Positions 2,088 to 46,395 of a stretch of DNA of 64,000 bases are shown here, in pieces (within the stretch, counting starts at the first letter, position 1; every line of letters starts with the position of its first letter). The position numbers were made by a program, and so were the translations under genes. Below the pieces are notes generated by a model. It saw only the letters and a list, made by a program, of their open reading frames with translations. It searched no databases and was not told the origin of the DNA. The DNA is from Chiloscyllium plagiosum. Taxonomy: Eukaryota. The stretch is taken from assembly GCF_004010195.1 (NCBI RefSeq), contig NC_057719.1, forward strand, positions 9,711,112 to 9,775,111. The letters run 5' to 3'.

Positions 2088-2291
2088 CTAAGTTGACTGT
2101 CAGCTTTACACGGCCTCCGTCCAGTTCCAAGCGCAGTGTATCTGCTGAGTCCCTCGAGGTCGTAGCCACGAGCAAGCCGTAAGCTCGCTGGGACATGAAT
2201 CGGAGAGAGACATCTTCAGCTTCCGTGTGCATTACCCAGGGCATGACTATCTTCAGGTACATGCTGCCATCGTAGCTCAGGATGGATGCCT
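2088..2291 (-). CDS. nrxn3: Alpha-neurexin coding exon (start of LNS4, immediately 5' of splice site 3), most likely neurexin-3
   Basis: Translates (E)[67 protein letters not shown]. Acceptor tctctgcAG (2293-2292) and donor GTattg (2087-2086); 204 bp, phase 1-1. [19 protein letters not shown] and LDGGRV fit NRXN3 better than NRXN1/2 as I recall those sequences. Confidence 0.9.
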
Positions 2292-2430
2292 CTGCAGAGA
2301 CAGAAATGAAAATGGCTTTCAGTTAACGTAATTGGGCTTCCCCCCATCTGAGGGGATGTCAATTTCTTGTCTTTCAAGCTAAAAGAATTTACAATTTTTT
2401 AAACAAAAAGGTACTCCCCACTGTAGTGAT

Positions 2431-3659: not shown

Positions 3660-4235
3660 TAGCCTTCATTGCAAGAAGGCTTGAGTACAGAAGCAAGGAT
3701 CTCTTGCTGCGATTCTACAGGGCTTTGCTGAAATTATATCTGGAGTAGCATGTGCAGTTTTAATCTCCTTATCTAAGAGAAGATGTACTTTCCTTACAGG
3801 GAGTGCAGTGAAAGTTCACTGGACTAATTCCAGTGATGGTAGGTTTGTCGTATGAAGAGAGATTGGGTTGATTGGGCCTGGATTCACTTGAGTTCAGAAG
3901 ACTGAGAGGGCATCTCATTGCAACATATATAATTCTGACATGGCTGCCCAGATTGGACTCAAAGATGATGTGACTACTGGCCCGGAGAGTCCAAGATAAG
4001 GAATCACACTCTCAGGACACAGGATAGAAATGAACAGAATGAAAAGATGAGAAATTTCTTCAGCCTCTGACATTGTCTTTGTGAAGGCAAAATCATTGAA
4101 TATGTTTAAGAAAGAAATAGGTTTCTCGACACTGAAGCTGTTAAGGGATTTGGAAAGAGACCAGGAGTATGGTATTGATACAGAACATCAGCCATGTTGA
4201 AAGGTGGTACAGCCACAATGGGCTGAATGGTCTAT
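3660..4235 (+). mobile_element. Decayed CR1 LINE 3' fragment
   Basis: Similar to the other CR1 3' ends in the window (gagtacagaagcaaggat...tggagtagcatgtgcagttt). Confidence 0.7.
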
Positions 4236-4417
4236 TTCAAAATGAGTCAGTCCGCTCTGACTTTATATGTATCTACAGATGTCTTTACCTTACTCCAAGT
4301 CCACACCCAGACTTAATCAATCAAGCACAGTGGGCATCAATACTGGACAGGTACAAATAAACAAATACAGCATTGTGGTTCTGGTTAGTGTGGTGGTGGG
4401 AGGATTTGAAGCAGTGA

Positions 4418-4562
4418 GAGGGAAGGTGTTCAAGGTGAGGTAATGCGTGCTAGCATCAGGTTAGGTTAGTGCACTCTGTTCTCAGGGCTGTTTGCCAAGC
4501 GGGCTGCAGGCTTCAGGCCTTTGAAGGGTTGATAGCCATCTTTTGACTCAAGAGTGACTCAT
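4418..4562. repeat. Copy B of the ~140-bp direct repeat
   Basis: Near-identical core to 1357-1497, same orientation. Confidence 0.9.
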
Positions 4563-4685
4563 TTTTCAAAAACAATGATGTTGCAAGTTATTTTTCAAAC
4601 GCTTCATGAGTTGAGTGTGATAGAACCACAAACTTTGCTCAAATGAAGGACAATCACAACGGCAAAAATTGCACACAGAAATAAT

Positions 4686-4807
4686 ACACACACACACACG
4701 CTCACACACGCACGCACACACACACGCGCGCGCACACGCACGCGCACGCACGCACACGCACACGCGCACACGCACGCACACGCGCACACACACACACGCA
4801 CACACAC
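4686..4807. repeat. Compound (CA)n/(CG)n microsatellite
   Basis: ~120 bp of alternating purine-pyrimidine sequence. Confidence 0.97.
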
Positions 4808-5829
4808 TTCTGGGTTGAAAATGGAGTCCATTCTTGAACTTGTTCACGAATTGACTTGTTGGAGCATAATGCAAGACAATATAAAATAGCCATAGAATCA
4901 AGAACAAAGAACAAAACAGCACAGAAACAGGCCCTTCAGTCCTCCAAGCCTACACTGTCACATTTCTCCCTTTCATACTAAAATTGCCTAATGCAATTCT
5001 TAATTCTTAAGCACTTAATTAATTATTTAATTAATGCTTCACAGTCAGGGAATGAGAGCTTTTACTGAGTCAGCATGCATAGGTTGGACCAAAGGGCTTG
5101 TTTCCGTGCTGTATAACTCTATTGCTCTAAAGGAAATGTTTGTATGTCAGATCTTTAAAATTACACGCCTTACGTCAGACGTTCGTAAAGAGCAATTTTC
5201 TATATGTGCAATAAAACCCATTGAAGAAGCCACAACAATTACAGTTAGAGGAAAGGGTTATGATAGGAACATAACCACTTCTGAATGATTTCAGCACGTT
5301 TCTAAGCATACATGACAATGATTACATTGCCATTCTGAGGATGATAGAAGTTAGCTGACAATTGAGCCTTGTGGTGGGTGGTGGAGACAGGTTGGGGCCA
5401 GAGGAGGGAATATTGTTGGAAATTTAGTAGACATCAGGGAACACCAAATGGATAAGGTCAGAAGAAGATGAGTGGCCTGCAGCTTCATTATGGAGGTCCC
5501 CTGCTCCTCCAAACTGTGCACAATCAAGAATGTTAATTTTTAATGTTATCTACCAGCAGTACCCTCACGGCCAACACTTTAGCTACCAGATGTGATTTCA
5601 TATTATAGGCTGCAGTTAGTCGTAACCAAATATTCCTCTGAATCTCTTCGAAAATGATAACATGTTGGCTTTAGCCTGGGCATCTCCTGTGTAACTGTTG
5701 TAAAAGACAGCTGGACCAAAAGGATTCACTTAAAAACTACGGAAATGTTCCAACCACAGATATATAAAAGACTGTCTCTGGGAGACGTTAGTCAGTTATT
5801 GTTCACCATGAGCTCTTAAGTTTTGTATC

Positions 5830-6562
5830 GTAATGTGGTCTAGGCCTTGCCACAGGTGGTGCAAGACTGATGGTTGATTTGAGCCTCTAGCTTAGTCTGG
5901 GCACTGCCTCTTGGCATCCCTGATGGCTTTGCGGAGACCTTCTCTGAATTTCCTGTGTTGGTCTGGGCCACCTGACTTGAATGCTGCCTGCCCGGTCTTC
6001 AGTAGGGAGTGGATTTCCAGGTTCATCCAAGGTTTATGGTGGAGGAACACTCGGATTGACTTCTTTGGTGACGGTGTGGTGTACTCATCTGCTGAGTACT
6101 TGGACACGGTCCAGGCCACTGATTCCATGCAGTCCCAGAGATGGTCTTCCACAGCCTCAGACCAGTATTGTACTTCCTTTTATGAAGGCTCCTCCCATTT
6201 CAGCTTCTGCTTGTAAGCTGGGAGGAGGACCACCATGCCGTGATGTGAATTTCCGAAATGTGTGCGGGGGATGGAGAGGGACACCTTCATGAAAGACCAG
6301 GTTGAGATTAAATTCTGATGATGGATGGGGATGACGGTTGTGAATGTTCAGTGGTTCAGAATGTTCGATTCTCTGGTGGGGCAGAGGATGTTTTGGTGCT
6401 AGTTTGGCAGCACCCTCTTCAAGTTGGCCCAGTTGAAGTCACTGTCCACAATGAATATGTCTCCAGAGTGTTTGTACATTTTGTCAGGGCATTCTTCACA
6501 TCTGCATGGGGTGGTATGTAAACTGCTGTCAGGATGGCGGAGGTGAACTCTAGAGGTAGGTC
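5830..6562 (-). mobile_element. Rex1/Babar-like LINE fragment (endonuclease and tether region)
   Basis: ORF 5892-6152 contains KPWMNLEIHSLLK...LRKAIRDAKRQ, homologous to the start of ORF 7934-8755. Confidence 0.7.
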
Positions 6563-6570
6563 ATATTTTT

Positions 6571-6901
6571 TAGATTAGATTAGATTCCCTACAGTGTGGA
6601 AACAGGCCCTTTGGCCCAACATGTCCACACCGACCCTCCAAAGAGCAATCCACCCAGACCCATTTCCCTATATTTACCCCTGACTAATGCACCTAACACT
6701 ACGGACAACTTAGCATGGCCAATTCATCTGACCTGCACATCTTTCGACTGCGGGAGGAAACCGGAGCACCCAGAGGAAACCCACACAGACACGGGGAGAA
6801 TGTGCAAACTCCACACAGACAGTTGCCCAAGGCGGGAATTGAACCTAGGGTCCCTGGCGCTGTGAGGAAGCAGTGCTAACCACTGAGCCACCGTGCCGCC
6901 C
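6571..6901 (-). mobile_element. HE1-type tRNA-derived SINE, full length
   Basis: Minus strand has gggcggcacggtggctcagtggttagc (A box), ggttcaattcc (B box), V-SINE-like core and (aatct)n tail. Confidence 0.9.
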
Positions 6902-7933
6902 AATGAGTGAGTATACTTTGAATATATCTGACTCAGGCATTTTAGAACTGTACATTAGTACACCTTCATGAAAGACCAGGTTGAGATTAAATTTTAAAAA
7001 TTTTAGTGAGGTTTTTTGGTCTGAGAGGAAAAAAAACTAAGAAATCACTACTGTGGAGAAAATTTGATATCTGCATGTAATATTAGCAAAGAGAGACAGG
7101 TGCCAATATAATTTGAGTATTACTAAAATGTTTAATTTTAATTAAGCATTTGCATCAATATTTGAGTAAGTTTTCTAAGTGAAAATGCGCATGAATATCC
7201 AAATCAAGTGATTATAATTTCTAAAATTATGCGTGCCTCAATTTGACTATATTGAATGTTAATGGGTGAATTAAGAGATTCATGAGAGGTGTAGATAGAG
7301 TTAATGGTCGGTGTCTTTTCCCAAGGATGGGGGATTTCAAGACTAGGAGGCACAGCTTTAAGGCGAGAGGAGAAAGATTTTAAAAAAAGACATGAGTGAC
7401 AACTATTTTACACAGAGGGTGGTTTGTGTGTTGATTGAACTTCCTGAGGAAATGACGGATGTGGGTATAATTACAATGTTTAAAAGACATTTGGATAGGT
7501 ACATGAATAGGAAAGGTTTGGAGGGATCTGGGCCAGGAGCATGCAGGTGGGTCTAGTTTAGTTTGGGATTATGTTCGGTATGGGTTGGTTGTATTGAAGG
7601 TTCTGTTTCTGTGCTGTATGACTGTCTTCTAAATTCAAGCAAGTGAAAAGCCTGCTGAGAGTTCCTTTTAAAGATGGAAACTTCTAAGACATTGGGAAGA
7701 GAGATAATTAAAGTAAGACTGCTTATTCTTCAATGCAGCAGCTGGTGAAGGCAGTGAATAGCTGAGCCATAAGTATCAGAAAACTCCCAAGTTGAAGTCA
7801 TGGTCATAGGGATGGCATATCACTGTAAGGCATTCTAGGTGAGGGGAGCAAGGGCTTGTAAAGGTCACAATGCCTGAATACCAGGAGGTATTGATCAGAA
7901 AGCATACCCCATTGCCTTTCACCTTACCCAAGA

Positions 7934-8751
7934 ATGCTGAGGACATTTAAGTTGGATGACCCAGACTTATACAGGAGATCCACATATGACCTCCACAAAG
8001 ATTTCAGGGATGCTAAGAGACAGGACCCAACCAAGTCAGAGGCCCAAACCTACCAACCAGACTCCCACCACTTTTGGCAAGGCCGAAACAACATTACGGG
8101 ATACAAAATGAAGAACAAGATAGTGGACAAACACACATCCCTCCCTGATGCACTCGATGCTTTCTATGCTCCGGATACAGCTGTGCCCACTGACACCACT
8201 GCAAATGTCAGATCAGTCTTCCAGGGAGTCAACCCAAGGAAAGTGATGAGCCCGGTTGGAGTCCCCAGCCAAGCACTTAGATCCTGTGTGGACCAACTGA
8301 CAGAGGCAGTCACCAACATCTTCAACTTCTTCCTTCGACAAGTTGAAGTCTCCAATTGCTTCAAGAAGACCACCATCATCCCAGTACCAAAGAAAGCACA
8401 TGCAACGTGCTTTAATGGCTACCGCCCAGTGGCTCTGACATCTATAATCATGAAGTGCTTTGAGAGGCTGATCACGGCCCAGATCAACTCCAATCTCCCA
8501 GCCTGCCTCAGTCCTCTACAATTAGAGTGCCGATGTAACTGGTCCACAGCAGACACCATAACCATAGCCCTGCACTCATCCCTGAAACATCTGGACAACC
8601 AAGACACCTACCTCAGACTCCTGCTCATTGACTATAGCTCAGCCTTTAACACCATTACTCCCTCCAGATTGATCTCACAACTCGGTCACCTTGGTCTCAG
8701 CGCCACCCTCTGCAACTGGATCCTCAGCTTCATGACCCACAGACCACAATC
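7934..8751 (+). mobile_element. Rex1/Babar-like LINE, 5' part of reverse transcriptase (RT)
   Basis: [30 protein letters not shown] and LLLIDYSSAFNTI motifs; continues at ~12037 after a CR1 insertion. Confidence 0.88.
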
Positions 8752-11700
8752 ATAGAACATAGAGCATAGAACATTACAGTGCAGTACAGGCCCTTCGTCT
8801 CTCGATGTTGCACCGACCTGTCATACCAATCTAAAGCCCATCTAACCTACACTATTCCATGTACGTCCATATGCTTGTCCAATGACGACTTAAATGCACT
8901 TTAAGTTGGCGAATCTACTACTGTTGCAGGCAAAGCATTCCATACCCTTACTACTCAAGTGCGGCCGCACTAGAGTTTTGTACAGCTGTAGCATAACCTC
9001 ATGGTTCCGGAACTCGATTCCTCAATTAATAAAAGCTAAAACACTGTATGCCTTCTTAACAATCCTGTCAACCTGGGTGGCAACTTTCAAGGATCTGTGT
9101 ACCTGGACACCGAGATCTCTCTGCTCATCGACACTACCATTAGCCCAATACTTTGCATTCCGGTTACTCCGATTAAAGTGAATCACCTCACACTTGTCCG
9201 CATTAAACTCCATTTGCCACCTCTCAGCCCAGCTCTGCAGCTTATCTATGTCTCTCTGTAACCTCCAACATCCTTCGTCGCTATCCACAACTCCACTGAC
9301 CTTAGTGTCATCTGTAAATTTACTAACCCATCCTTCTTCGCCCTCATCCAGGTCGTTTATAAAAATGACGAACAGCAGTGGACCCAACACCGACCCTTGC
9401 GGTACACCACTGGTAACTGGACTCCAGGACAAACATTTCCCATCAATCACCACCCTCTGTCTTCTTTCAGCAAGCCAATTACTGATCCAAACTGCTGTAT
9501 CTCCCACAATCCCGTTCTTCCGCATTTTGTACAATAGCCTACTGTGGGGAGCCTTATCAAACGCCTTGCTGAAATCCATACACACCACATCAACTGGTTT
9601 ACTCTCATCTACCTGTTTGGCCACCTTCTCAAAGAACTTAATAAGGTTTGCGAGACACCACCTACCTTTCACAAAACCGTGTTGACTATCCCTAATCAAA
9701 TTATTCTTTTCTGGATGATTATAAATCCTATCTCTTATAATCTTTTCCAACACTTTACCAACAACTGAAGTAAGGCTCATTGGTCTATAATCACCAGGGT
9801 TGTCTCTACTCCCCTTCTTGAACAGGGGAACCACATTTGCTATCCTCCAGTCTTCTGGCATTATTCCTGTAGATAATGACGATTTAAAGATCAATGCCAA
9901 AGACTCGGCAATCTCCTCCCTGGCTTCCCAGAGGATCCTAGGATAAATCCCATCCGGCCCAGGGGACTTATCTATTTTCACACTCTGCAGGATTTCTAAT
10001 ACCTCTTCCTTGTGAACCTCAATCCCACCCAGTCTAGTAGCCTGTATCTCAGTATTCTCCTCGACAACATTGTCGTTTTCTAGAGTGAATAGTGTCGAAA
10101 AATATTCATTTAGTGCTTCCCCTATCTCCTCTGACTCCACACACAACTTCCCACTACTATCCTTGATTGGCCCTAATCTTACTCTCGTCATTCTTTTATT
10201 CCTTAAATACCGATAGAAAGCTTGAGGGTTTACCCTGATCCTATCCGCCAACAACTTCGCATGTCTCCTCCTGCTCTTCTGAGCGCTCTCTTTAGGTCTT
10301 TCCTGGCCACCTTGTAACCCTCAAGCGCCCTAACTGAGCCTTCACATCTCATCCTAACATAAGCCTTCTTCTTCCTCTTGACCAGAGATTCCACTTCCTT
10401 CGTAAACCACGGCTCCCGCGCTCTACAGCTTCCTTCCTGCCTGACAGGTACATGCTTATCTAGGACACTCAGGAGCTTTTCCTTCAATAAGCTCCACATT
10501 TCTAATGTGCCCATCCCCTGCAGTTTCCTTCCCCATCCTATGCTTCCTAAATCTTGCCTAATCGCATCGTAATTGCCTTTCCCCNNNNNNNNNNNNNNNN
10601 NNNNNNNNNNNNNNNNNNNNNNNNNNNNNNNNNNNNNNNNNNNNNNNNNNNNNNNNNNNNNNNNNNNNNNNNNNNNNNNNNNNNNNNNNNNNNNNNNNNN
10701 NNNNNNNNNNNNNNNNNNNNNNNNNNNNNNNNNNNNNNNNNNNNNNNNNNNNNNNNNNNNNNNNNNNNNNNNNNNNNNNNNNNNNNNNNNNNNNNNNNNN
10801 NNNNNNNNNNNNNNNNNNNNNNNNNNNNNNNNNNNNNNNNNNNNNNNNNNNNNNNNNNNNNNNNNNNNNNNNNNNNNNNNNNNNNNNNNNNNNNNNNNNN
10901 NNNNNNNNNNNNNNNNNNNNNNNNNNNNNNNNNNNNNNNNNNNNNNNNNNNNNNNNNNNNNNNNNNNNNNNNNNNNNNNNNNNNNNNNNNNNNNNNNNNN
11001 NNNNNNNNNNNNNNNNNNNNNNNNNNNNNNNNNNNNNNNNNNNNNNNNNNNNNNNNNNNNNNNNNNNNNNNNNNNNNNNNNNNNNNNNNNNNNNNNNNNN
11101 NNNNNNNNNNNNNNNNNNNNNNNNNNNNNNNNNNNNNNNNNNNNNNNNNNNNNNNNNNNNNNNNNNNNNNNNNNNNNNNNNNNNNNNNNNNNNNNNNNNN
11201 NNNNNNNNNNNNNNNNNNNNNNNNNNNNNNNNNNNNNNNNNNNNNNNNNNNNNNNNNNNNNNNNNNNNNNNNNNNNNNNNNNNNNNNNNNNNNNNNNNNN
11301 NNNNNNNNNNNNNNNNNNNNNNNNNNNNNNNNNNNNNNNNNNNNNNNNNNNNNNNNNNNNNNNNNNNNNNNNNNNNNNNNNNNNNNNNNNNNNNNNNNNN
11401 NNNNNNNNNNNNNNNNNNNNNNNNNNNNNNNNNNNNNNNNNNNNNNNNNNNNNNNNNNNNNNNNNNNNNNNNNNNNNNNNNNNNNNNNNNNNNNNNNNNN
11501 NNNNNNNNNNNNNNNNNNNNNNNNNNNNNNNNNNNNNNNNNNNNNNNNNNNNNNNNNNGCAACACACCAACCATGAGTCTCTCTCGTCCCCACAGAACCT
11601 CCTATCTGTCCCCCTAACTATGGAGTCCCCAATGACTACTGCTCTGCTCCTCTTCCCCCTTCCCTTCTGTGCAGCAGGGACAGACTCTGTGCCAGAGCCC

Positions 11701-12036
11701 TGTGCCCCACTGCTTTCTCCTGGTAAGTTGTCCCCCCCAAAAGTATCCAAAATGGTATACTTATTGTTGAGGAGAATGGCCACAGGGGATCTCTGCACTG
11801 CCTGCCGGTTCCCTTCCCATCTCCTGACTGCAACCCATTTGCCTTTTTCATGTACCTGAGGAGTGACTACCCCCCTGTAACTCCTCTCAATAACCCCCTC
11901 TGCCTCCCGAATGATCCGAAGTTCATCCAGCTCTAACTCCAGTTCCCTAACATGGTTTTCGAGGAGCTGGAGTTGAGTGCACTTCCCGCAGATGTAGTCA
12001 GCAGGGACACTAGTGGTGACCCTTATCTGACACATT
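8752..12036 (-). mobile_element. CR1 LINE with ORF1 (CxxC, coiled coil, SGNH-esterase-like) and ORF2 RT, nested in the Rex1/Babar-like LINE
   Basis: 11559-12035 encodes CGKC...ELELELDELR...VVIGDSIVRG. 9022-10254 encodes [40 protein letters not shown]. (ttctatg)n tail at 8750-8772; frameshift near 10260; internal deletion near 8955. Confidence 0.93.
10585..11558. other. Assembly gap (974 N)
   Basis: Run of N inside the CR1 element. Confidence 1.
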
Positions 12037-13065
12037 CTTCAGTGAAGATAGACAACTGCACTTCCCCCACGATAATACTCAACACTGGAGCTGTCCGAGG
12101 ATGCATCCGAAGCCTCCTACAAAACTCCCTGTTGACCCACAACTATGGTGCCAATTCCAAATGAACGCCATCTACAGGTTCGCCGATGACACCACCATGG
12201 CAGGACGATATCCAACAGTGATGAGTCAGAATACAGGAAGGGGATAGAGGGCTCGGTGACATGGTGCAATGATATCAACCTCTCATTCAACGTCAGCAAA
12301 ACTAAAGAACTGATCATTGCCTTCAGAACGAAAGGAGGAGAACACACCTCCATCTCCATCAATGGAGCTGAAGTTGAGAGGGTGGAGAGCGACAAGTTCC
12401 TAGGAGTGACGATAACCAACAATCTGTCCTGGGCTTCCCATTCGACGGTCAAGAAGTGACAACAAAACCTTTTCCTCATCAGGCGGCGCAGGAAATTTAG
12501 CATGTCCAGAAGGTCCCTCACCAACTTTTGTAGATGCACTATAGAAAGCATACTGTCTGGGAACATAATGGCCTGGTATGGCAACTGCTCTGCCCAGGAC
12601 CATAAGATACTACAGAAGGTAGTGTGCACAGCCCAGACCAACACGGAAGCCAACCTCCCATTCATGGGCTCCATTTAAACTGCCCGTTGCCACGGAAAGC
12701 TGCCAACATCATCAACAACCCCTCCCACCTCACTAATGTGCATCTACAACCTCTTCCATCAGGCAGCATATGCAGAAACTTGAACACAGTCACCAGCAGG
12801 TTTAAGAACAGTTCCTTCCCTACCCTTTATTGGACTGATGAAAGGACCTCTCTAAACTTCAAATAATGGTGATCTTGCTAATGTTGATCTTGTCCAGCAC
12901 ATGTCCTATGTGATGTAACCTGTATGCCCTGCCTAAGCATTTTTTTTGTGCTATGAGCTGTATGTCATTGCTTACCATGATCTGCCTGTGCTGCTCATAA
13001 ACAAAGCTCTTCATTGTGCTTCGGAACATGTGACAATAAATAAATCAATTCAAATCAAATAAATC
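12037..13065 (+). mobile_element. Rex1/Babar-like LINE, 3' part of RT and tail
   Basis: tacaggttcgccgatgacacc (YRFADDT) and LSFNVSKTKELII; tail aataaataaatcaattcaaatc. Confidence 0.85.
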
Positions 13066-19775: not shown

Positions 19776-21069
19776 CGATGGATCACATCAAAAATTCATG
19801 ATCCATTATTCAATGCAGTTATTAACTTATTTAAGTGTTTCGTTCACTCAGCAGGTAAGCAAACAAATGTGGGCACGTTAACCTGTACCCAGTGTAATTT
19901 CAACATGTATGAAATTTAAAAGACTTACAGCTAGTAGCAGGAGACAAATACTGACCCTCAGAGACTAGAATAGGCTCCAAGGTTCAGTGCACACAATGGT
20001 ACAACTTGACAAACTTAACCAGCAATTGCAGATCATCCACTCCATCTAGCTCCAGGACATCAATAAAGATGTGATGTTCAGATGTCAGCCCTGAAGGAGA
20101 GTCATACCAGACTTGAAACGTTAACTCTGTTTTCTCTCGCAAAGGTGGTGCTGAGTTTCTCCAGCATTTCTGTGTTTGTTTCAGATTTCCAGCATCCAAA
20201 GTCCATAAAGGTGTTAGACCTCAGCTCTTACTGTCATCCATTACACTTAAACCAACAGCAATGAGGCTAGTTTTAAAAGAGAGATCTTTTATTTAACCTC
20301 TGAGCTCAATCAATGGTAGAAAACATCCAGGAGGATAGTGGAAAGTGATAACCTTAGAATCATACAACATGGAAACAGACTCTTCAGCCCACTCATTCAT
20401 GTTGACCCAGTTTCCTAAATTGAACTAGTCCCATTTTTCTGTATTCGATCCATATCCTTCTAAAGCTCTCCTATTTATGTACCCGTCTAAATGTCTTTAA
20501 TTGTTGTGATTGTACCCGCTTCCAACCTCTCTTCTGGCAGCTCGCACATACACACCACCCTCAGTATGAAAATATTGCCCCTCAGGTCCCTTTCAAATCT
20601 TTCCCCTCTCACCTTCAACCTATGCCCTCTAGTTTTGGATTCCCCTACCATGCTTTGCTATTCACCTTACCGATGCCCTTCGTGAATTTATACACAGTGG
20701 AGCCAGTGGATCGATAATTGCAGCACACCAATGGTCACAGGCCTCCAACCTGAACAACAATCCTCTACCAGCACTCTCTCTCTCTCTCCTACCATCAAGC
20801 CAATTCTGTGTCCAGTTGGCTCTCTCTCTGTCCTCAAAGCATCCCTGAAGAGGTCAAACACCTTCACTGCACCAGGGGAGTCACTTCCCTGTGACCGATC
20901 AAACTGGAGGACGTTCATCTGTCAAGGCACCCAACGCATTGGGAAATTTCAGCAGGTAGGTGCAGGAGCAAAGCTGAGATGTGGTAGGGAGAGAGCAAAT
21001 TTTGTGCGAAGATTTGTAGCTCGGGTGCTCGTTGTTGTGGTTCTGTTCGCCGAGCTGGAAATTTTTGTT

Positions 21070-21109
21070 GCAAACGTTTCGTCCCCTGGCTAGGCGACAT
21101 CATCAGTGC
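21070..21109 (-). ncRNA. Minimal type I hammerhead ribozyme motif (mirror copy, sense to the neurexin pre-mRNA)
   Basis: Exact reverse complement of 21267-21306. Confidence 0.75.
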
Positions 21110-21266
21110 TTGGGAGCCTCCTGCGAAGCGCTTCTTTGATGTTTCCTCCGGTGTTTATAGTGGTCTGTCCCTGCCGCTTCCGGTTGTTACAACCGGGAGC
21201 GGCAGGGACAGACTACTATAAATACCGGAGGAAACATCAAAGAAGCGCTTCGCAGGAGGCTCCCAA

Positions 21267-21306
21267 GCACTGATGATGTCGCCTAGCCAGGGGACGAAAC
21301 GTTTGC
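21267..21306 (+). ncRNA. Minimal type I hammerhead ribozyme motif
   Basis: GCA-CUGAUGA-U-GUCGCCU(AGCC)AGGGGAC-GAAA-CGUU-UGC: stem I GCA/UGC, stem II 6 of 7 bp, self-complementary ACGU at stem III. Confidence 0.75.
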
Positions 21307-21431
21307 AACAAAAACTTCCAGCTCGGCGAACAGAACCACAACAGAGAGCAAATCTCCAAATGAGCCAACCCTTCAAGCAACACCTTCCCCACACCTGGCA
21401 GAGACTGCAGGTTGTGCACTGTACATTAAAC

Positions 21432-22190
21432 TGGAATAAATACAGCCAGATGGACATAATAGGAGTTCCCTGACTGGGTTGTTAATCTGGTCCTATCAGG
21501 GAGCCCTGGCTGACAGATATAAACAGGAGTGCTGAAGACTTCCTCGTGGGTCTGCTCCTGGGCCTGGCCAAACTGGCCATAAACAGGTCCAGGCAGCGGG
21601 CCGTGGAGGGAGTCAATAGGGCTGACTGCCTGCCCCTCTTCCTCAGTTACGTTAGAGCCCGGGTATCCTTGGAGAAGGAGCATGCGGTGCCCACCAACAC
21701 CCTGGAGTTGTTCAGGGAGAGGTGGGCACCGCAAGGAGTGGAGTGTATTATTTCCCCCTCCAACTCTATTTTGATTTAATCCCTGCCCTCCCCTTCACTG
21801 TTTGATCACACAGCATTGACCTTTGATGCGAAGGGCACTAACTTGTCACTGGCCACTCGGGTGTTTTCGTATCTTCCTGGTGGTGGAAAATGAATAAAGA
21901 TTCATGCACCTTGTGTCTCTCACTGTGTCTCACACCTACACACACACACACACACAACATGGGTGCTGGGGGAAAAATAAGCACTACCGCAGTTAGGCGG
22001 CAGTGTTGTGGGGGTTAAAAAAAAATAAACAGGAGTGTCTGAAAAAAGAGAGAAAAATAAACAGGAGTGTCAGAGATTCTGTTCACTCAGAGAACTGGCT
22101 CTGAGGGAGCCAAACCAGTGTCAAGTCATATGCACGTGTAAATACAGGGTGACCTGGTGATGGGATACCGGCCTCTGTGGAGTTATTTCA
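21432..22190 (+). mobile_element. Second copy of the short solo-LTR-like element, interrupted at its TATA box
   Basis: gagttccctga...gttaatctggtcc...ctgacagatataaacagg...ttctgttcact...ggagttatttca is shared with 2431-3248. Confidence 0.65.
21532..22056 (+). mobile_element. Tx1-like LINE 3' end (ORF2 C-terminus, 3' UTR, poly(A))
   Basis: LLLGLAKLAINRSR...YVRARVSLE...FRERWAPQG resembles L1/Tx1 ORF2 C-termini; 13-bp TSD ataaacaggagtg (21519-21531 / 22057-22069). Confidence 0.8.
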
Positions 22191-23129: not shown

Positions 23130-25288
23130 GAACATATTAGAACATAGAACATTACAGCAAAGCATAGGCCGTTCAGCCCGCAATTTCGCGCCAAACTATG
23201 AAACCAATCTGAAGCCCATCTAACCTACAGTATTCCATTATCATCCATATGTTTATCCAATGACCATTTAAATGCCCTTAAAGTTGGCAAGCCCATGACT
23301 TTTGCAGGCAGTGTGTTCCACACACTTTCTACTGAGTAAAAAAAGGCTCTCCCTGTCCACCCCATCTAACCCTCTGATTATCTTATATGTCTCAAATAAG
23401 TCACCTCTCAACCTTCTTCTCTCTAATGAAAACAGCCTCAAGTCCCTCAGCTTTTCCTCATAAGACTTTCCTCCATATCAGACAATATCCTGGTAAATTT
23501 CCTCTGAGCTCTTTCCAAAGCTTTTACATCCTTCCAAAAATGTGGTGACTAGAATTGTAAGCAATACTCCAAGTATGGCCACACCAGTGTTTTGGACAGC
23601 TGCAGCATGACCTCGTGGCTCCAAAACTCAATCCCTCTGTGAATAAAAGCTAACACACCGAATGCCTTCTTAATAAACCTATCAACCTACGTGACAAATT
23701 TCAGGGATCTATTTACATGACACCGAGATCTCTCTGTTCATCTACACCTGCAACATCCTTCAGCACTGTCCACAACTCCACCGACCTTAGTGTCATCTGC
23801 AAATTTACTAACCCATCCTTCCATGCCCTCATCTAGGTCATTTATAAAAATGACAAACAGCAGTGGCCCCAAAACAGATCCTTGCGGTACACACGAGGAA
23901 CTGAACTCCAGGATGAACATTTCCCATCAACCACTCTACCCTCTGTCTTCTTTCAGTTTGCCAATTTCTGATCTAAAACCACTAAATCACCCTCAACCCC
24001 ATGCTTCCATATTTTGTGCAATAGCCTACCATGGGAAACTTTATCAAATACCATACTGAAATCCACATACACCACATCAACCACTTTACCCTCATCCACC
24101 TGTTTGGTCACCATCTCAATGAACTCAATAAGATTTATGAGGCATGACCTACCCTTCACAAAACCATGTTGACTATCCCTAATCAATTTATTCCTCTCTA
24201 GATGATTATAAATCCTATCTCTTATAACCTTTTCCAACACTTTACTTACAACCAAAGTAAGGCTCACTGGTCTATAGTTACCAGGGTTGTCCCTACACCT
24301 CTCCTTGAACAAGGGGATAGCATTTGTTATCATCCAGTCTTCTGGCAGTATTCCTGTAGATAATGACGACATAAAGATTAAAGCCAAAGGCTCTGCAATC
24401 TCCTCCCTGGCTTCTCAGAGAATCTGAGGATAAATCCCATCCGGCCCAGGGGACTTAGCTATTTTCATGCTTTCCAGAATTGTGAACACCTCCTCCTTGT
24501 GAACCTCAATCTCATCTAGTCTCAGCCTGTATCGCAAAATTCTCCTCCACAACATAGTATTCAGACTGGAAAAAGACAAACAAAAAATATTCATTTAGTG
24601 CTTCCCCTATCTCCTCAGACTCCATGCACAACCTCTCACCACTGTCCTTGATTGGCCCTAATTTTTCCCTAGTCATTCTTTTATTCCTGATATACCTATA
24701 GAAACGTTAGGGTTTTCCTTGATTCTGTCTGCCAATGCCTTCTCGTGTTCCCTCCTGGCTCTTCTTAGCTCTCTCTTTAGGTCCTTCCTGGCTAACTTGT
24801 AACTCTCAAGCACCCTAACTGAGCCTTCACATCTCATCCTAACGCAAGCCTTCTTCTTCCTCTTGATAAGAGATTCAACTTCCTTAGTAAACCACGGCTC
24901 CCTTGCTCGACCATTTCCTCCCTGCCTGACCGGTACATACTTCTCAAGGACACGCAGTAGCTGTACCTTGAATAAGCTCCACATTTCAATTGTGCCCATC
25001 CCCTGCAGTTTCCTTCCCCATTCTCTCCATCCTAAATCTTGCCTGATCACATCATAATTGCCTTTCCCACAGCAATAACTCTTGCCATGCAGTATATACT
25101 TATCCCTTTCCATTGCTAAAGTAAACATAATTGAATTGTGGTCACTATCACCAAAGTGCTCACCTACCCCCAAATCTAACACCTGGCCGGGTTCATTACC
25201 TAGTACCAAATCCAATGTGGTCTCGTCCCTTGTTGGCTTGTCTACATACTGTGTTAGGAAACTGTCCAGCACACACTGGACAAAAACT
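23130..25288 (-). mobile_element. CR1 LINE, 5'-truncated (endonuclease to 3' tail), same family as 8752-12036
   Basis: [35 protein letters not shown] and FADD fragments. Confidence 0.92.
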
Positions 25289-25817
25289 ATATTGATCGGG
25301 TTACAGTTTGTGAGGCATGGAGGAAGCTCATGCCGAGTATAGCTTTTGGGATTAACCAGATGAGCTGAATGGCCTGATTCCAGGTAAAAAAGGAGATTTT
25401 AGATTTAGATTCAGATTTTATTGTCACATGGACTCAGGAGTACAGTGAAAAGTGACTAATGTCGTTCCGCACGGCGCTATCGTAGGTACAAAGGTTACAA
25501 GGTACAAAAAGGTCCCAATGTGGTCTCGCCCCTTGTTGGCTTGTCTACATACTGCGTTAGGAAACCGTCCAGCACACACTGGACAAAAACTTTATTGATC
25601 GGGTTACAGTTTGTGAGGCATGGAGGAAGCTCATGCCGAGTATAGCTTTTGGGATTAACCAGATGAGCTGAATGGCCTGATTCCAGGTAAAAAAGGAGAT
25701 TTTAGATTTAGATTCAGATTTTATTGTCACATGGACTCAGGAGTACAGTGAAAAGTGACTAATGTCGTTCCGCACGGCGCTATCGTAGGTACAAAGGTTA
25801 CAAGGTACAAAAAGGTC
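25212..25817. repeat. Tandem duplication, 2 x 303 bp
   Basis: 25212-25514 and 25515-25817 differ at 4 positions by my count. Confidence 0.95.
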
Positions 25818-29749: not shown

Positions 29750-31495
29750 GATTTCATTTGATGCATTATTGTCACTTGTACTGAGATACAGTGAGAAGTA
29801 TTGTTATGCATGTTAACCAGAAAAATCATACCTTACATAAAAACATCATGGTATTGAACAGAATGCAGAATGCCATGTTACAGCTACAGAGAAGTTGCAG
29901 AGAAAGAACAACTCTAATATATGAGAGGTCCATTCATTAATCTGATAAGGAGCTGTTCTTTAAACTGTTGGTACGTGCTTCAACCCTTTGTACCTTCTGT
30001 CCAATGGAAGAGGGTGCGAGAGAGTATAACCAGGGAGGTGCCTTTGATGATGTTGGCTATTTTCCTGAGGCAGCAGAAGAATAGATGGAGTGAAAGAAAG
30101 GAAGGCTGGTTTTCATAATGGACAGAGCTGCATTCACAACTCTGTAATTTCTTGCAGTCTACAGTAAAGCAGTTGCCATACCAAGCTGTGATGTATCTGG
30201 ATAGGATGCTTTCAATGGTGCATCTATAAAAACTGGTACTGAATAAACCGAATTTCCGTAGCCTTCTGAAGACAGTGTCGATGTGGATGGATCAGGACAG
30301 ATTGTTGATTATATTTATTTACTCCGAGCAACTTGAAGCTATTGACCATCCCTACTTCAGCACCATTGTTGCAGACAGGCACCTGTCCTCCACTCTGCTT
30401 CCTGAAGTTGATGATCAGCTCCTTCATTTTGCTGATATTGAGGGAGAGTTTGTTCTCCTTACACTGTGCCACTAAGCTGTCTATCTCTTTCCTGCACTCT
30501 GTCTCATTGTTGTTTGAGATCCGACCCACTACAGTGGTGTCATCAGCAAATTTGTAAATGGAGTTAGAGCTGAATTTAGCCACACAGTTGTGAGTGTATA
30601 AGGAGTAGTGTAAGGGGCGGAGGGCACAGCCTTGTAGGGCACCAATGTTGAGGATTATTGTGATGGAGATGTTGTCACCTATACTTAATGATTGCAGTCT
30701 GTGGGTCAGCAAGTCAAAAATCCAGTTGCAGAGGGGGGAAAACAGAGTCTTGGAGTTTGGAGATGAGTTTTGTTGGAATTATGGAGCGAAGGTGGAGCTA
30801 TAATCAATAAATATGAGCCTGATGTGGATGTCTTTGCTATCTAGATGTTCCAGGGATGGGTGTCGGGCCAGGGAGGTGGCATCTGCCCTGGACATATTGA
30901 TGAAGGACTTTTGCTGAAAACGCAATTCTCCTGCTCCCCGGATGCTGCCTGACCTGCTGTGCTTTTCCAGCACCACATTCTCGACTCTAATCTCCAGCAT
31001 CTGCCATCCTCACTTTCACCTTTTGTGACCGTAGGCGAATTGTGGTGGATCAAGGCAACCTGGGAGAGTGGAGTTGATGTGCGCTGGTACTAACCTCTCG
31101 AAGCACTTCATAATGATGGATGTCAAAGCTACTGGGTGGCTGATTTTTCTTTGGCACCAGGATAGTGGTTTTCTTAAAACAGGTGGGAACCTCAGACTGT
31201 AGTAAGGAGAGGTTAAAGATATCAGCGAGTACTCCCTGCCGCTGGTCTGCACAGGATCTGGGTACATGGCTGGACACTCCATCTGGGCCGGTCGCTTTCT
31301 ATGGGTTCACTCTCAAGAAGGCAGACCTGATCCCTGCAATGGTGACCATGGGTACAGGAGCACATGAGGCTGTCGAGGCAGGTGACATCATTTCACTGCC
31401 CTTCTATTCAAAACGAGCGTAGAATGCATTGAGCTCATTGGGGAGGGATACATTATTGTCAGTAACACTACTTGACTTCACTTTGGAGCCTGTGA
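29750..31495 (-). mobile_element. Rex1/Babar-like LINE, interrupted by a Penelope-derived repeat (~30897-31020)
   Basis: [36 protein letters not shown]. Confidence 0.88.
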
Positions 31496-36293: not shown

Positions 36294-36512
36294 CCGGTGT
36301 TGGACTGGGGTGGACAAGGTCAGAGGTCACACAATACCAGGTTCTGGGCCGACAGGTTTATTTGAAATCACAAGCTTTGAGAGCACTGCTCCTTCATCAG
36401 ACAACGTCTTGGTGACTTCACCCTGACGAAGGAGCAGCGCTCTGAAAGCTTGTGATTATAAATAAACCTGCTGGACTATAACCTGGTGTCTGTGACTTCT
36501 GACCTTGTTCAC
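36294..36512. mobile_element. Inverted pair of a second hammerhead-bearing Penelope-derived repeat family
   Basis: 36294-36400 (-) and 36423-36512 (+) are diverged reverse complements. Confidence 0.7.
36418..36455 (+). ncRNA. Minimal hammerhead ribozyme motif
   Basis: UCAC(C)-CUGACGA-A-GGAGC(AGC)GCUCU-GAAA-GCUU-GUGA; self-complementary AGCU at stem III. Confidence 0.6.
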
Positions 36513-39548: not shown

Positions 39549-39737
39549 ATTCCTGATGAAGGGCTTTTGCCCGAAATGTGGATTTTACTGCTCCTCGGAT
39601 GCTGCCTGAACTGCTGTGCTTTTCCAGCACCACTAATCCAGAATCTGGTTTCCAGTATCTGCAGTCATTGTTTTTACCTTTTTCTAGCACCACTCTAACC
39701 TAGACTCTGATTTCCAGCATCTGCAATACTCATTTTT
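39549..39737 (+). mobile_element. Penelope-derived repeat with hammerhead core (cleavage triplet mutated)
   Basis: CTGATGAagggcttttgcccGAAAtgtg; 19-bp TSD gcacaYttcaagagctgtg (39530-39548 / 39738-39756). Confidence 0.75.
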
Positions 39738-44530: not shown

Positions 44531-44847
44531 GCCATAGATTTGCCGATCCACCCAGCCTGTACAGATCATGCCAATCTGGGATGGGAAAGCACTCCACAGT
44601 CCTCCACACCATGAACACCATTGGGGTGGAAGTGGAGTAATTGCAGGATCTGCATCCCTCCAGTATTTGGCCTGGCCTCCCCATCTCGAAGTCCACCATG
44701 GCAGGACACCACCTTCTGCCCAAGGTCATTTTCAAGCTGGCATTTTGAATTGAAGCAGACTTCTTATTTTGTCTTAAATGAAGAGGGAAAGACAAGTTGG
44801 TGGAAACACATTTAAATTCAGGTGTTCTTTGAAAGACTCTACAACCA

Positions 44848-46395
44848 TTGAAGGAGGAGGTACTGGATGTCTTGAAATGCACAAAGGTGGATAAATTCCC
44901 AGGACCTAATCAGGTGTACCACAGAACTCTGTGGGAAGGCAGGGAAGTGATTGTTGGGCCTCCTGCTGAGATATTTGGATCATTGATAGTCACAGGTGAG
45001 GTGCCGGAAGACTGGAGGTTGGCTAATATGGTACCATTATTTAAGAAAGGTGGTAAGGACAAGCCAGGGAACTATAGACCAGTGAGCCTGACGTTAGTGG
45101 TGGGCAAGTTGTTGGAGGGAATCCTAATGGACAGGATTTACATATATTTGGAAAGGCAAGGACTGACTAGGAATAGTCAACATGGCTTTGTGCTTGGGAA
45201 ACCATGTCTCACAAACTTGATTGAGTTTTTTGAGGAAATAACAAACAGGATTGATGAGGGTAGAGCGGTAGATGTGATTTATATTAATTCAGTAAGGCAC
45301 TCAACAAGGTTCTCATGGAAGACTGGTTAGCAAGGTAAGACCTCATGGAATACAGGGAGAACTAGCCATTTGGATACAGAACTGACTCAAAGGTAGAAGA
45401 CAGAGTTTCAGACTGGAGGCCTGTGACCAGTGGAGTGCCACAAGGACCGGTGCTGGGTCCACTACGTTTTCATTATTTATATAAATGATTTGGGTGTGAG
45501 CATAAGAGGTATAGCTAGTAAGTTTGCAGATGACATCAAAATTGGAGGTGTAGTGGACAGTGAAGATGGTTACCTCAGATGACAACTGGATCTTGATCAG
45601 ATGGGTCAATGGACTGAGGAGTGGGAGATGGAGTTTAATTTAGATGAATGCGAGGTGTTGCATTTGGGAAAAGCAAATTTAGCAGGACTTATACACTTAA
45701 TGGTAAGGTCCTAGGGAGTGTTGCTGAACAAAGAGACCTTGGAGTGCAGGTTGATACTTCTTTGAAAGTAGAGTCACAAGTAGATAGAATAGTGAAGAAG
45801 GCGTTTGGTATGCTGTCATTTATTGGTCATATTATTGAGTACAGGAGTTGGGAGGTCATGTTGCAGTTGTACAGGACTTTGGTTAAGCCACTTTTGGAAT
45901 ATTGCATGCAATTCTAGTCTCCTTCCTATCTGTTGTGAAACTTGAAAGGGTTCAGAAAATATTTACAAGGATGTTGCCAGGGTTGGAGGATTTGAGCGAT
46001 AGGGAGAGGTTGAATAATTTAGGGCTGTTTGCTCTGGAGCATCAGATGCTGAGGGGTGACCTTATAGAGGTTTATAAAATCATGAGGGGCATGGATTGGA
46101 TAAATAGACAAAGTATTTTCCCTGGGGTCAGGGAGTCCAGAACTAGAGGGGCATAGGTTTAGGCTGAGAGGGGGAAAGATAAAAAAAGGGACCTCAGGGG
46201 CAACTTTTCCACACAGAGGGTGGTGTGTGTGTGGAATGAGCTGCCAGAGGAAGTGGTGGAGGCTGGTACAATTGCAACATTTAAAAGGCATCTGGATGGG
46301 TATATGATAAGAAGGGTTTGGAGGGATATAGGCTGGGTGCTGGCAGGTGGGACTAGACTAGGTTAGGATATCTGGTCGGCATGGACGAGTTGTAA
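44848..46395 (+). mobile_element. CR1 LINE (RT to 3' UTR), frameshifted
   Basis: PEDWRLANMVPLFKKG, NYRPVSLT, QHGF and LIEVYKIMRG. Confidence 0.92.

Follow-up and report, generated by a model that had tools for sequence, protein, structure and literature searches.

EN+ Penelope-like elements (PLEs) are described, in the available parts of PMC8557442 and PMC3846280, as inserting in units composed of an inverted, 5'-truncated copy with a tail on one side, and the former source calls the formation of the inverted ends undefined. The Poseidon enzyme of Anolis carolinensis, PAc, cleaves and extends both strands in vitro, begins copying at two RNA starts that bound the tail, and is a predicted dimer; its start sites were the same for the top strand as for the bottom one, its ribozyme cleaved only in the presence of the protein, and inverted insertions receive no treatment in that paper (PMC11167929). 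Minimal hammerhead ribozymes of PLEs displayed no activity as monomers and low activity as dimers, and opposite-strand pairs of them lie 100–700 bp apart in Schistosoma, according to the available text of PMC4209133. Our literature search found no paper on Penelope ribozymes in cartilaginous fish.

The window analyzed here, a 64,000-nt stretch of Chiloscyllium plagiosum contig NC_057719.1, contains an insert of 342 bp (21001–21342) bounded by the 11-bp direct repeat AGAGAGCAAAT at 20990–21000 and 21343–21353. Its inverted arms (21034–21187 and 21189–21342) are 154 nt each, share 97.4% identity, and are separated by 1 nt; their four mismatches are all transitions. The left arm exceeds the right by 33 nt, and this extra stretch (21001–21033) is Penelope tail. 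A prior sequence-only reading had described a 342-bp palindromic insertion with an 11-bp target-site duplication (TSD), which we confirm, the TSD being genuine by the empty site of a related organism. The inverted arms of that reading also stand, measured at 154 nt with four mismatches instead of its 155 bp, and it had overlooked the additional 33 nt of the left arm. The features are as follows.

20990–21000, plus strand: left copy of the TSD, 11 bp; present as a single copy at the empty site of the related organism.
21001–21033, minus strand: Penelope tail, a 33-nt extension on the left arm only, from sequence comparison with other copies.
21034–21187, minus strand: left arm, a 5'-truncated Penelope 3' end, sense to the neurexin pre-mRNA; 98% to positions 1117–1308 of copy L003.
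21070–21109, minus strand: minimal hammerhead of the left arm, with C3 at 21106 and a predicted cut after 21073; mirror of the right-arm motif.
21183–21193, no strand: head-to-head junction at the element's interrupted palindrome TTG(T/A)CAA, here with two extra letters, from comparison of 16 centers.
21189–21342, plus strand: right arm, a 5'-truncated 3' end terminating at the tail-less short end, from alignment to other family copies.
21191–21286, plus strand: last 31 codons and stop TAG (21284–21286) of the RT plus GIY-YIG ORF; the L003 ORF traverses the arm.
21267–21306, plus strand: minimal hammerhead of the right arm, from a descriptor scan and folding; stem I 21267–69/21304–06, core 21270–76, extra U 21277, stem II 21278–95, GAAA 21296–99, ACGU palindrome 21299–21302, U17 21303.
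21276–21342, plus strand: A9-U-G10.1 of the hammerhead as the likely start codon, with 22 initial codons belonging to the ORF of the tandem unit that follows, as in the Anolis PAc layout; use of this start is inferred.
21343–21353, plus strand: right copy of the TSD, from the empty site in the related organism.
2089–2295, minus strand: neurexin-alpha exon, downstream of the insert along the transcript; match to neurexin-1-alpha, E 3e-35.

This layout resembles the EN+ PLE units in the available parts of PMC8557442 and PMC3846280 in its inverted head-to-head pseudo-LTRs (pLTRs), its one-end tail of the 30–40-nt class, a TSD around the whole insert, and first ORF codons encoded by pLTR plus tail. 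It differs from them in having arms of 154 and 187 nt, no coding body, and a near-perfect palindrome; duplications in this family are 11–14 bp, versus 8–10 bp in the rotifer examples of the same excerpts.

Laminin-G exons, likewise minus-strand, are spread over 10.47 to 8.73 Mb of this contig, flanking the window (9.71–9.78 Mb) on both sides. By these exon matches and the one listed above, the host of the insert is an intron of a minus-strand neurexin-alpha gene, as had been proposed, and the next exon lies about 18.7 kb away. High-copy repeats of other kinds, with very high contig depth, adjoin the insert at 21476–21900 and 20550–20830. An open frame with a terminal stop occupies 21547–21780 and presumably resembles the end of an L1/Tx1 ORF2. 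LINE-like RT fragments lie at 7895–8755, 9022–12038, 23953–25398, 30224–30778, and 44833–45330, and there is an assembly gap around 10.6–11.6 kb of the window.

The empty site was recovered from a related organism in two studies (runs X7 and X11), where a 534-nt contig fuses 20620–20989 to 21343–21509 with a single 11-mer, its flanks differing at 18 of 534 letters. Compared with the family majority, one arm has 3 deviating letters and the other 1, over 145 places. Both observations uphold the view that the insertion is young, and the sequences are in line with an insertion dating to around or after the split from the related organism. In the source species, read contigs from run X1, possibly the assembly's own sample, cover both outer junctions, and those from run X3, another sample, cover the left one. 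None of the contig pieces listed spans the palindrome center, so the exact center rests on the assembly; this and the location in a high-copy repeat are what would speak for an assembly artefact in the interior. We regard such an artefact as most improbable, considering that the outward-facing outer junctions are present in those two runs, that the arms differ from each other at 4 places, and that 15 other places share the same center site.

To place the insert within its family, we used the right arm as a genome query, which returned 954 candidates; the 40 that were scored show 96–99% identity. Exact pattern searches counted 3,215 copies of the 46-nt hammerhead and 1,342 copies of the 49-nt tail end genome-wide, and a pattern covering both subfamilies matched 13,598 times. 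In copy L003, a 381-aa RT plus GIY-YIG frame continues across the arm as far as the TAG within hammerhead stem II, a single ORF with RT followed by a C-terminal GIY-YIG domain, of which the window copy retains the last 31 codons only. Its Pfam matches are both below the curated cut-offs (RVT_1, E 5e-6, score 26.8 versus a cut-off of 29.6; GIY-YIG, weak, E 0.078). Visual inspection showed clade marks that fit the criteria in the available part of PMC8557442: L003 has VVYKIPCKDCTKHYIG and a linker lacking cysteine, and L009 has ADKG. Placed by such sequence features, the parent is an EN+ PLE of the Penelope/Poseidon clade, and the Penelope origin named by the sequence-only reading is borne out. 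That reading had called for a genome search for full-length copies beside an RT plus GIY-YIG ORF; the L003 frame is such an ORF, and no intact full-length ORF of at least 450 aa was present among 45 loci, most of them with assembly gaps.

Other copies display the complete arrangement of pLTRs, tail, and TSD: L097 consists of an inverted pLTR, a direct pLTR, a body, and a tailed pLTR, and L131 is a tandem. In 5 of 25 loci (L073, L079, L090, L092, and L094), the tail runs on into common sequence, and this continuation is in frame with an ORF N-terminus that begins at the ATG which A9, the extra U, and G10.1 make up; these natural copies have stops. Rotifer elements have the same tail-into-ORF layout in the available part of PMC3846280, and the PAc ORF likewise begins where hammerhead stem II does, with the cut site 26 nt past the start codon versus 27 nt here (PMC11167929). 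The ends that bound the tail are at +67 and about +105 in this family, compared with a main start of +111–118 in PAc (PMC11167929). Tail length is about 39 nt in most copies and 33 nt in the window copy. The arms comprise the last 31 codons and the first 23–33 codons of the ORF of an autonomous element. Their 5' breakpoints vary from copy to copy, with 5' ends spread over 600 nt. A 17-nt stretch of L003 (951–967) beside a GAATTC palindrome collects 11 of 76 arm 5' ends; this cluster could mark a site of recurrent truncation or the place where a source transcript begins. Since the parent ORF runs through the arms, the family is large, and inverted pairs are common in it, we interpret the insert as two 5'-truncated 3' ends of the autonomous element and not as a separate unit; that it is a 5'-truncated inverted Penelope insertion is close to certain.

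Each arm carries the motif order GCA, CUGAUGA, extra U, stem II, GAAA, CG, U16.1, U17, and UGC. In stem II (GUC/GAC, G.G, CCU/AGG, loop AGCC), a G.G mismatch separates two halves of 3 bp each; stem I has no more than 3 bp, so both helices are short. A descriptor scan of the window found three places, the two arms and 36423, versus none in 30 block shuffles. Thus, the minimal type I core of the dimer kind on each strand, with its extra base after A9, is present as the sequence-only reading had noted, and the cut that it placed after 21303 agrees with our prediction. Rfam at gathering scores reported no family in the window, minimal hammerheads being too short for those models. The motifs have the marks of metazoan PLE minimal hammerheads in the available text of PMC4209133, namely a CUGANGA/GAAA/UH core, an extra base between 9 and 10.1, G10.1-C11.1, a long stem II, a short stem I, and a palindromic stem III position (15.2–16.2). 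They depart from those published there in their 3-bp stem I and in the U17 of the window copy's subfamily. Position 17 is C in the older subfamily, and U17 makes the cleavage-site triplet GUU. A GUU triplet is weaker than GUC.

Conservation of the core across genomic copies, which had been named as a check, was also observed. The two subfamilies differ by 4 changes in the 40-nt motif, all at N7, the stem II mismatch, loop II, or H17, among 173 matches in which some loci overlap and part were selected with the tolerant positions open; the P of about 0.001 applies to tolerant positions picked afterwards in a motif that also forms part of the coding sequence. In a less common relative, a C-G pair of stem II is replaced by U-A, and another family combines a GGGC/GCCC stem II with an identical core. 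The sequence pattern points to selection on the hammerhead in active parent elements. A distal stem I extension, GGAGG/CUUCC, seen in single-arm folds, was not counted; the older subfamily breaks this pairing without compensation.

A second minimal-hammerhead family, CTGANGAAG-N8-22-CGAAACGT, in which GGGC/GCCC is the usual stem II, was matched exactly 112,774 times genome-wide (control, 19), or about 32 per Mb; decayed copies lie in the window at 39553 and 53843 (plus strand). Hammerhead-like motifs with a different stem II occur at 36423, 48567, and 20091 (plus strand), the first of which passed the descriptor with an AGCU palindrome and a stem I of just 1 bp. Hammerhead counts in this genome, those of the second family included, are far above the 4,000–9,000 given for coelacanth and Xenopus in the available part of PMC4209133.

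Folding of the pre-mRNA strand predicted a hairpin of -353 kcal/mol with a 154-bp duplex containing three A.C mismatches. Forcing the hammerhead fold costs about 79 kcal/mol, and stem II, predicted at 14% in a lone arm, falls to near zero within the hairpin. This penalty agrees with the earlier suggestion that the hairpin would sequester the sense ribozyme, and both motifs are predicted to ride in it as inactive passengers. The antisense arm precedes the ribozyme arm in transcription from either direction. Because of this order and the 79 kcal/mol cost, cleavage of the neurexin pre-mRNA by the insert's ribozyme is unlikely; the duplex could be edited in RNA. The position inside a neurexin-alpha intron, the predicted duplex with its A.C mismatches, and two intact hammerhead cores might suggest that the hairpin or ribozyme was recruited as a regulator of this pre-mRNA through editing, small RNAs, or cleavage. 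We give this very little credence, however: the insert is missing from a relative whose flanks differ so little, the next exon is far off, intact cores are expected anyway at 1–2% decay, and the structure is common, with 15 such inverted pairs among the first 100 family hammerheads listed.

Those 15 pairs, minus-then-plus within about 1.1 kb and picked by eye from the first 100 listed of the 13,598 matches, disclosed a regularity at their outer ends. Exactly one full tail was present in 13 of the 15 (8 with the regular short end and 5 with a shorter end on the partner) and two tails in none, while the remaining two combined a short end with a partial or composite partner; the pattern has P 0.003 against independent ends. 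Pairs chosen by their center (n = 16) gave the same picture, with tail plus short end in 14, tail plus another end in 1, short plus another end in 1, and two tails in 0. Among 30 copies chosen by their tail, 16 lay within 1.5 kb of an inverted arm with a short end, and 13 of these had an adjacent duplication; none had an inverted tailed arm, and 4 had a duplication without an inverted arm. These samples are small and have two loci in common (L117 = L044, L123 = L050). Loci chosen by the short end yielded a short-plus-tail pair with a shared flank of 9–14 nt in 23 of 25; this sample was hand-picked from 35 loci and was left out as a test of the one-tail rule. The PAc assay in vitro leaves the rule unexplained because its start sites did not differ by strand. 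At the insert itself, the target site resembles the template past both ends, sharing TTTG with it at the tail end and agreeing in 6 of 8 letters at the short one (20996–21000, 21343–21350), and the next template base, A, follows 26 of the 30 tail-chosen copies, which could reflect a short primer-template pairing.

Arm lengths bear on how many templating events made such a pair. The 64 loci examined yielded 38 short-plus-tail pairs; the arm extending further 5' is the tail-less one in 21 of these and the tailed one in 11, and the two are equal within 5 nt in 6. The 21 pairs with a longer tail-less arm suggest two templating events, because neither arm contains the other and a single cDNA copying itself cannot yield both. 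The 11 and 6 count against two primings to the extent that fold-back could also yield them. In fold-back or self-priming, proposed for head-to-head Penelope junctions in the available part of PMC3846280, one cDNA or antisense template would snap back and copy itself into the second arm. Equal-length arms are indeed enriched (6 of 38 versus 1.3 in shuffles), and private variants common to both arms number 8 versus 1.3 in shuffles, 5 of them from one locus, in a test of low power in which most variants arose after insertion and 3 of the 38 pairs were dropped for short overlap. The sharing of subfamily variants by both arms and the near-perfect palindrome of the window copy also fit this origin. 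It would require a 1-nt loop here. A fold-back loop of that size is sterically unlikely. Element pieces, short and in either orientation, lie at the arm–arm junctions of L006, L026, L028, L038, L041, and L048, a sign of template jumps during sealing.

The center provides a second line of evidence. In the window copy, it sits on the element's interrupted palindrome with two extra letters, unique among the 16 places genome-wide that have the same center, 14 of them nearly equal in length. The 16 copies belong to three subfamilies (9, 6, and 1), and both arms are of one subfamily in all of them, one arm being too short to be informative in 2; in several, the arms also agree in finer variants. Read with the tailed arm on the left, the 13 orientable copies with a single-base center divide into 7 with T and 6 with A, and the base is mixed in both main subfamilies; one copy without a tail arm, the window copy (TTA), and one with CGG were left out of this count. 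A mixed base is expected if two cDNA ends anneal, because the resulting T.T mismatch gets repaired, whereas fold-back from the tailed strand or whole-unit copying would give one fixed base. This ratio, together with the pairs in which the tail-less arm is longer while its partner holds the tail and the loop requirement, makes fold-back an unlikely origin in our estimate.

Whole-unit copying would correspond to a non-autonomous, retrozyme-like palindrome of about 345 bp, the identity that the sequence-only reading had favored and that we do not retain. A shared center at 16 places with nearly equal lengths in 14 is what such a unit would leave, and the insert resembles the non-LTR retrozymes in the available text of bioRxiv 10.64898/2026.07.22.740005 in its type I hammerhead, its kinship to PLE pLTRs, and its size within the non-coding range. 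Those retrozymes are, however, head-to-tail tandem arrays, while the insert is a single inverted pair with remnants of the autonomous ORF and variable breakpoints (bioRxiv 10.64898/2026.07.22.740005). Head-to-tail repeats with hammerheads are absent, the only two matches in the window being inverted. Instead of fixed inherited boundaries, we observed the spread of 5' ends and a center re-formed independently in three subfamilies, whose variants match the subfamilies of the parent element and within whose main two the center base is mixed. The 16 places stand among thousands of copies with scattered breakpoints, a clade with common private variants and one center base was not seen among them, and an RNA of palindromic form would hide its ribozyme in its own duplex. 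Overall, a palindromic unit of this kind is highly unlikely.

These counts favor two primings and yield a testable one-tail rule. One priming per strand is the best reading because the arms are not nested, the center base is mixed, and the PAc enzyme acts on two strands from two starts as a predicted dimer. We propose that the GIY-YIG domain would nick both target strands 11 nt apart, and that one nick would prime reverse transcription at the tail-end start site of the RNA, while the other would do so 33–39 nt upstream, the source RNA sequence being the same for both. Both cDNAs would terminate early, and their 3' ends would anneal through microhomology, here the interrupted palindrome TGTCA, after which repair would seal the insert. 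L1 twin priming likewise involves primings from two nicked strands and leaves an inverted 5' part, the two parts coming from non-overlapping RNA stretches. In contrast, the two arms here are copies of one and the same 3' stretch, begun at two fixed starts. We consider this mechanism, with one cDNA from each nicked target strand, rather likely. The fuller reading of the insert, in which an autonomous Penelope/Poseidon element left two of its 3' ends joined head-to-head, one cDNA per nicked strand, with hammerheads that are predicted inactive passengers, is in our judgment probably correct. We also lean, with less assurance, towards a general form in which Penelope integration is an obligatory two-site, two-strand priming by a dimeric RT-endonuclease, using tail-end and tail-less starts and joining the 3' ends.

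The architecture of an inverted pair with a one-sided tail and the minimal hammerhead are already published; added here are the near-constant single tail per inverted pair and the recurrent center with a mixed base. No statement of the two-priming reading for Penelope was found in the literature searched, whose scope did not extend to subscription papers (Arkhipova 2006) or the supplements of PMC11167929.

The neurexin locus is one of many such footprints, most likely without function for neurexin. The locus is useful as evidence on how the inverted ends of Penelope elements form, and not for itself. With copies numbering in the thousands, this genome lends itself to testing the origin of PLE inverted repeats directly, against the published self-priming idea. 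If obligatory two-site priming is true, the one-tail rule and the 50:50 center base would be its genomic fingerprints.
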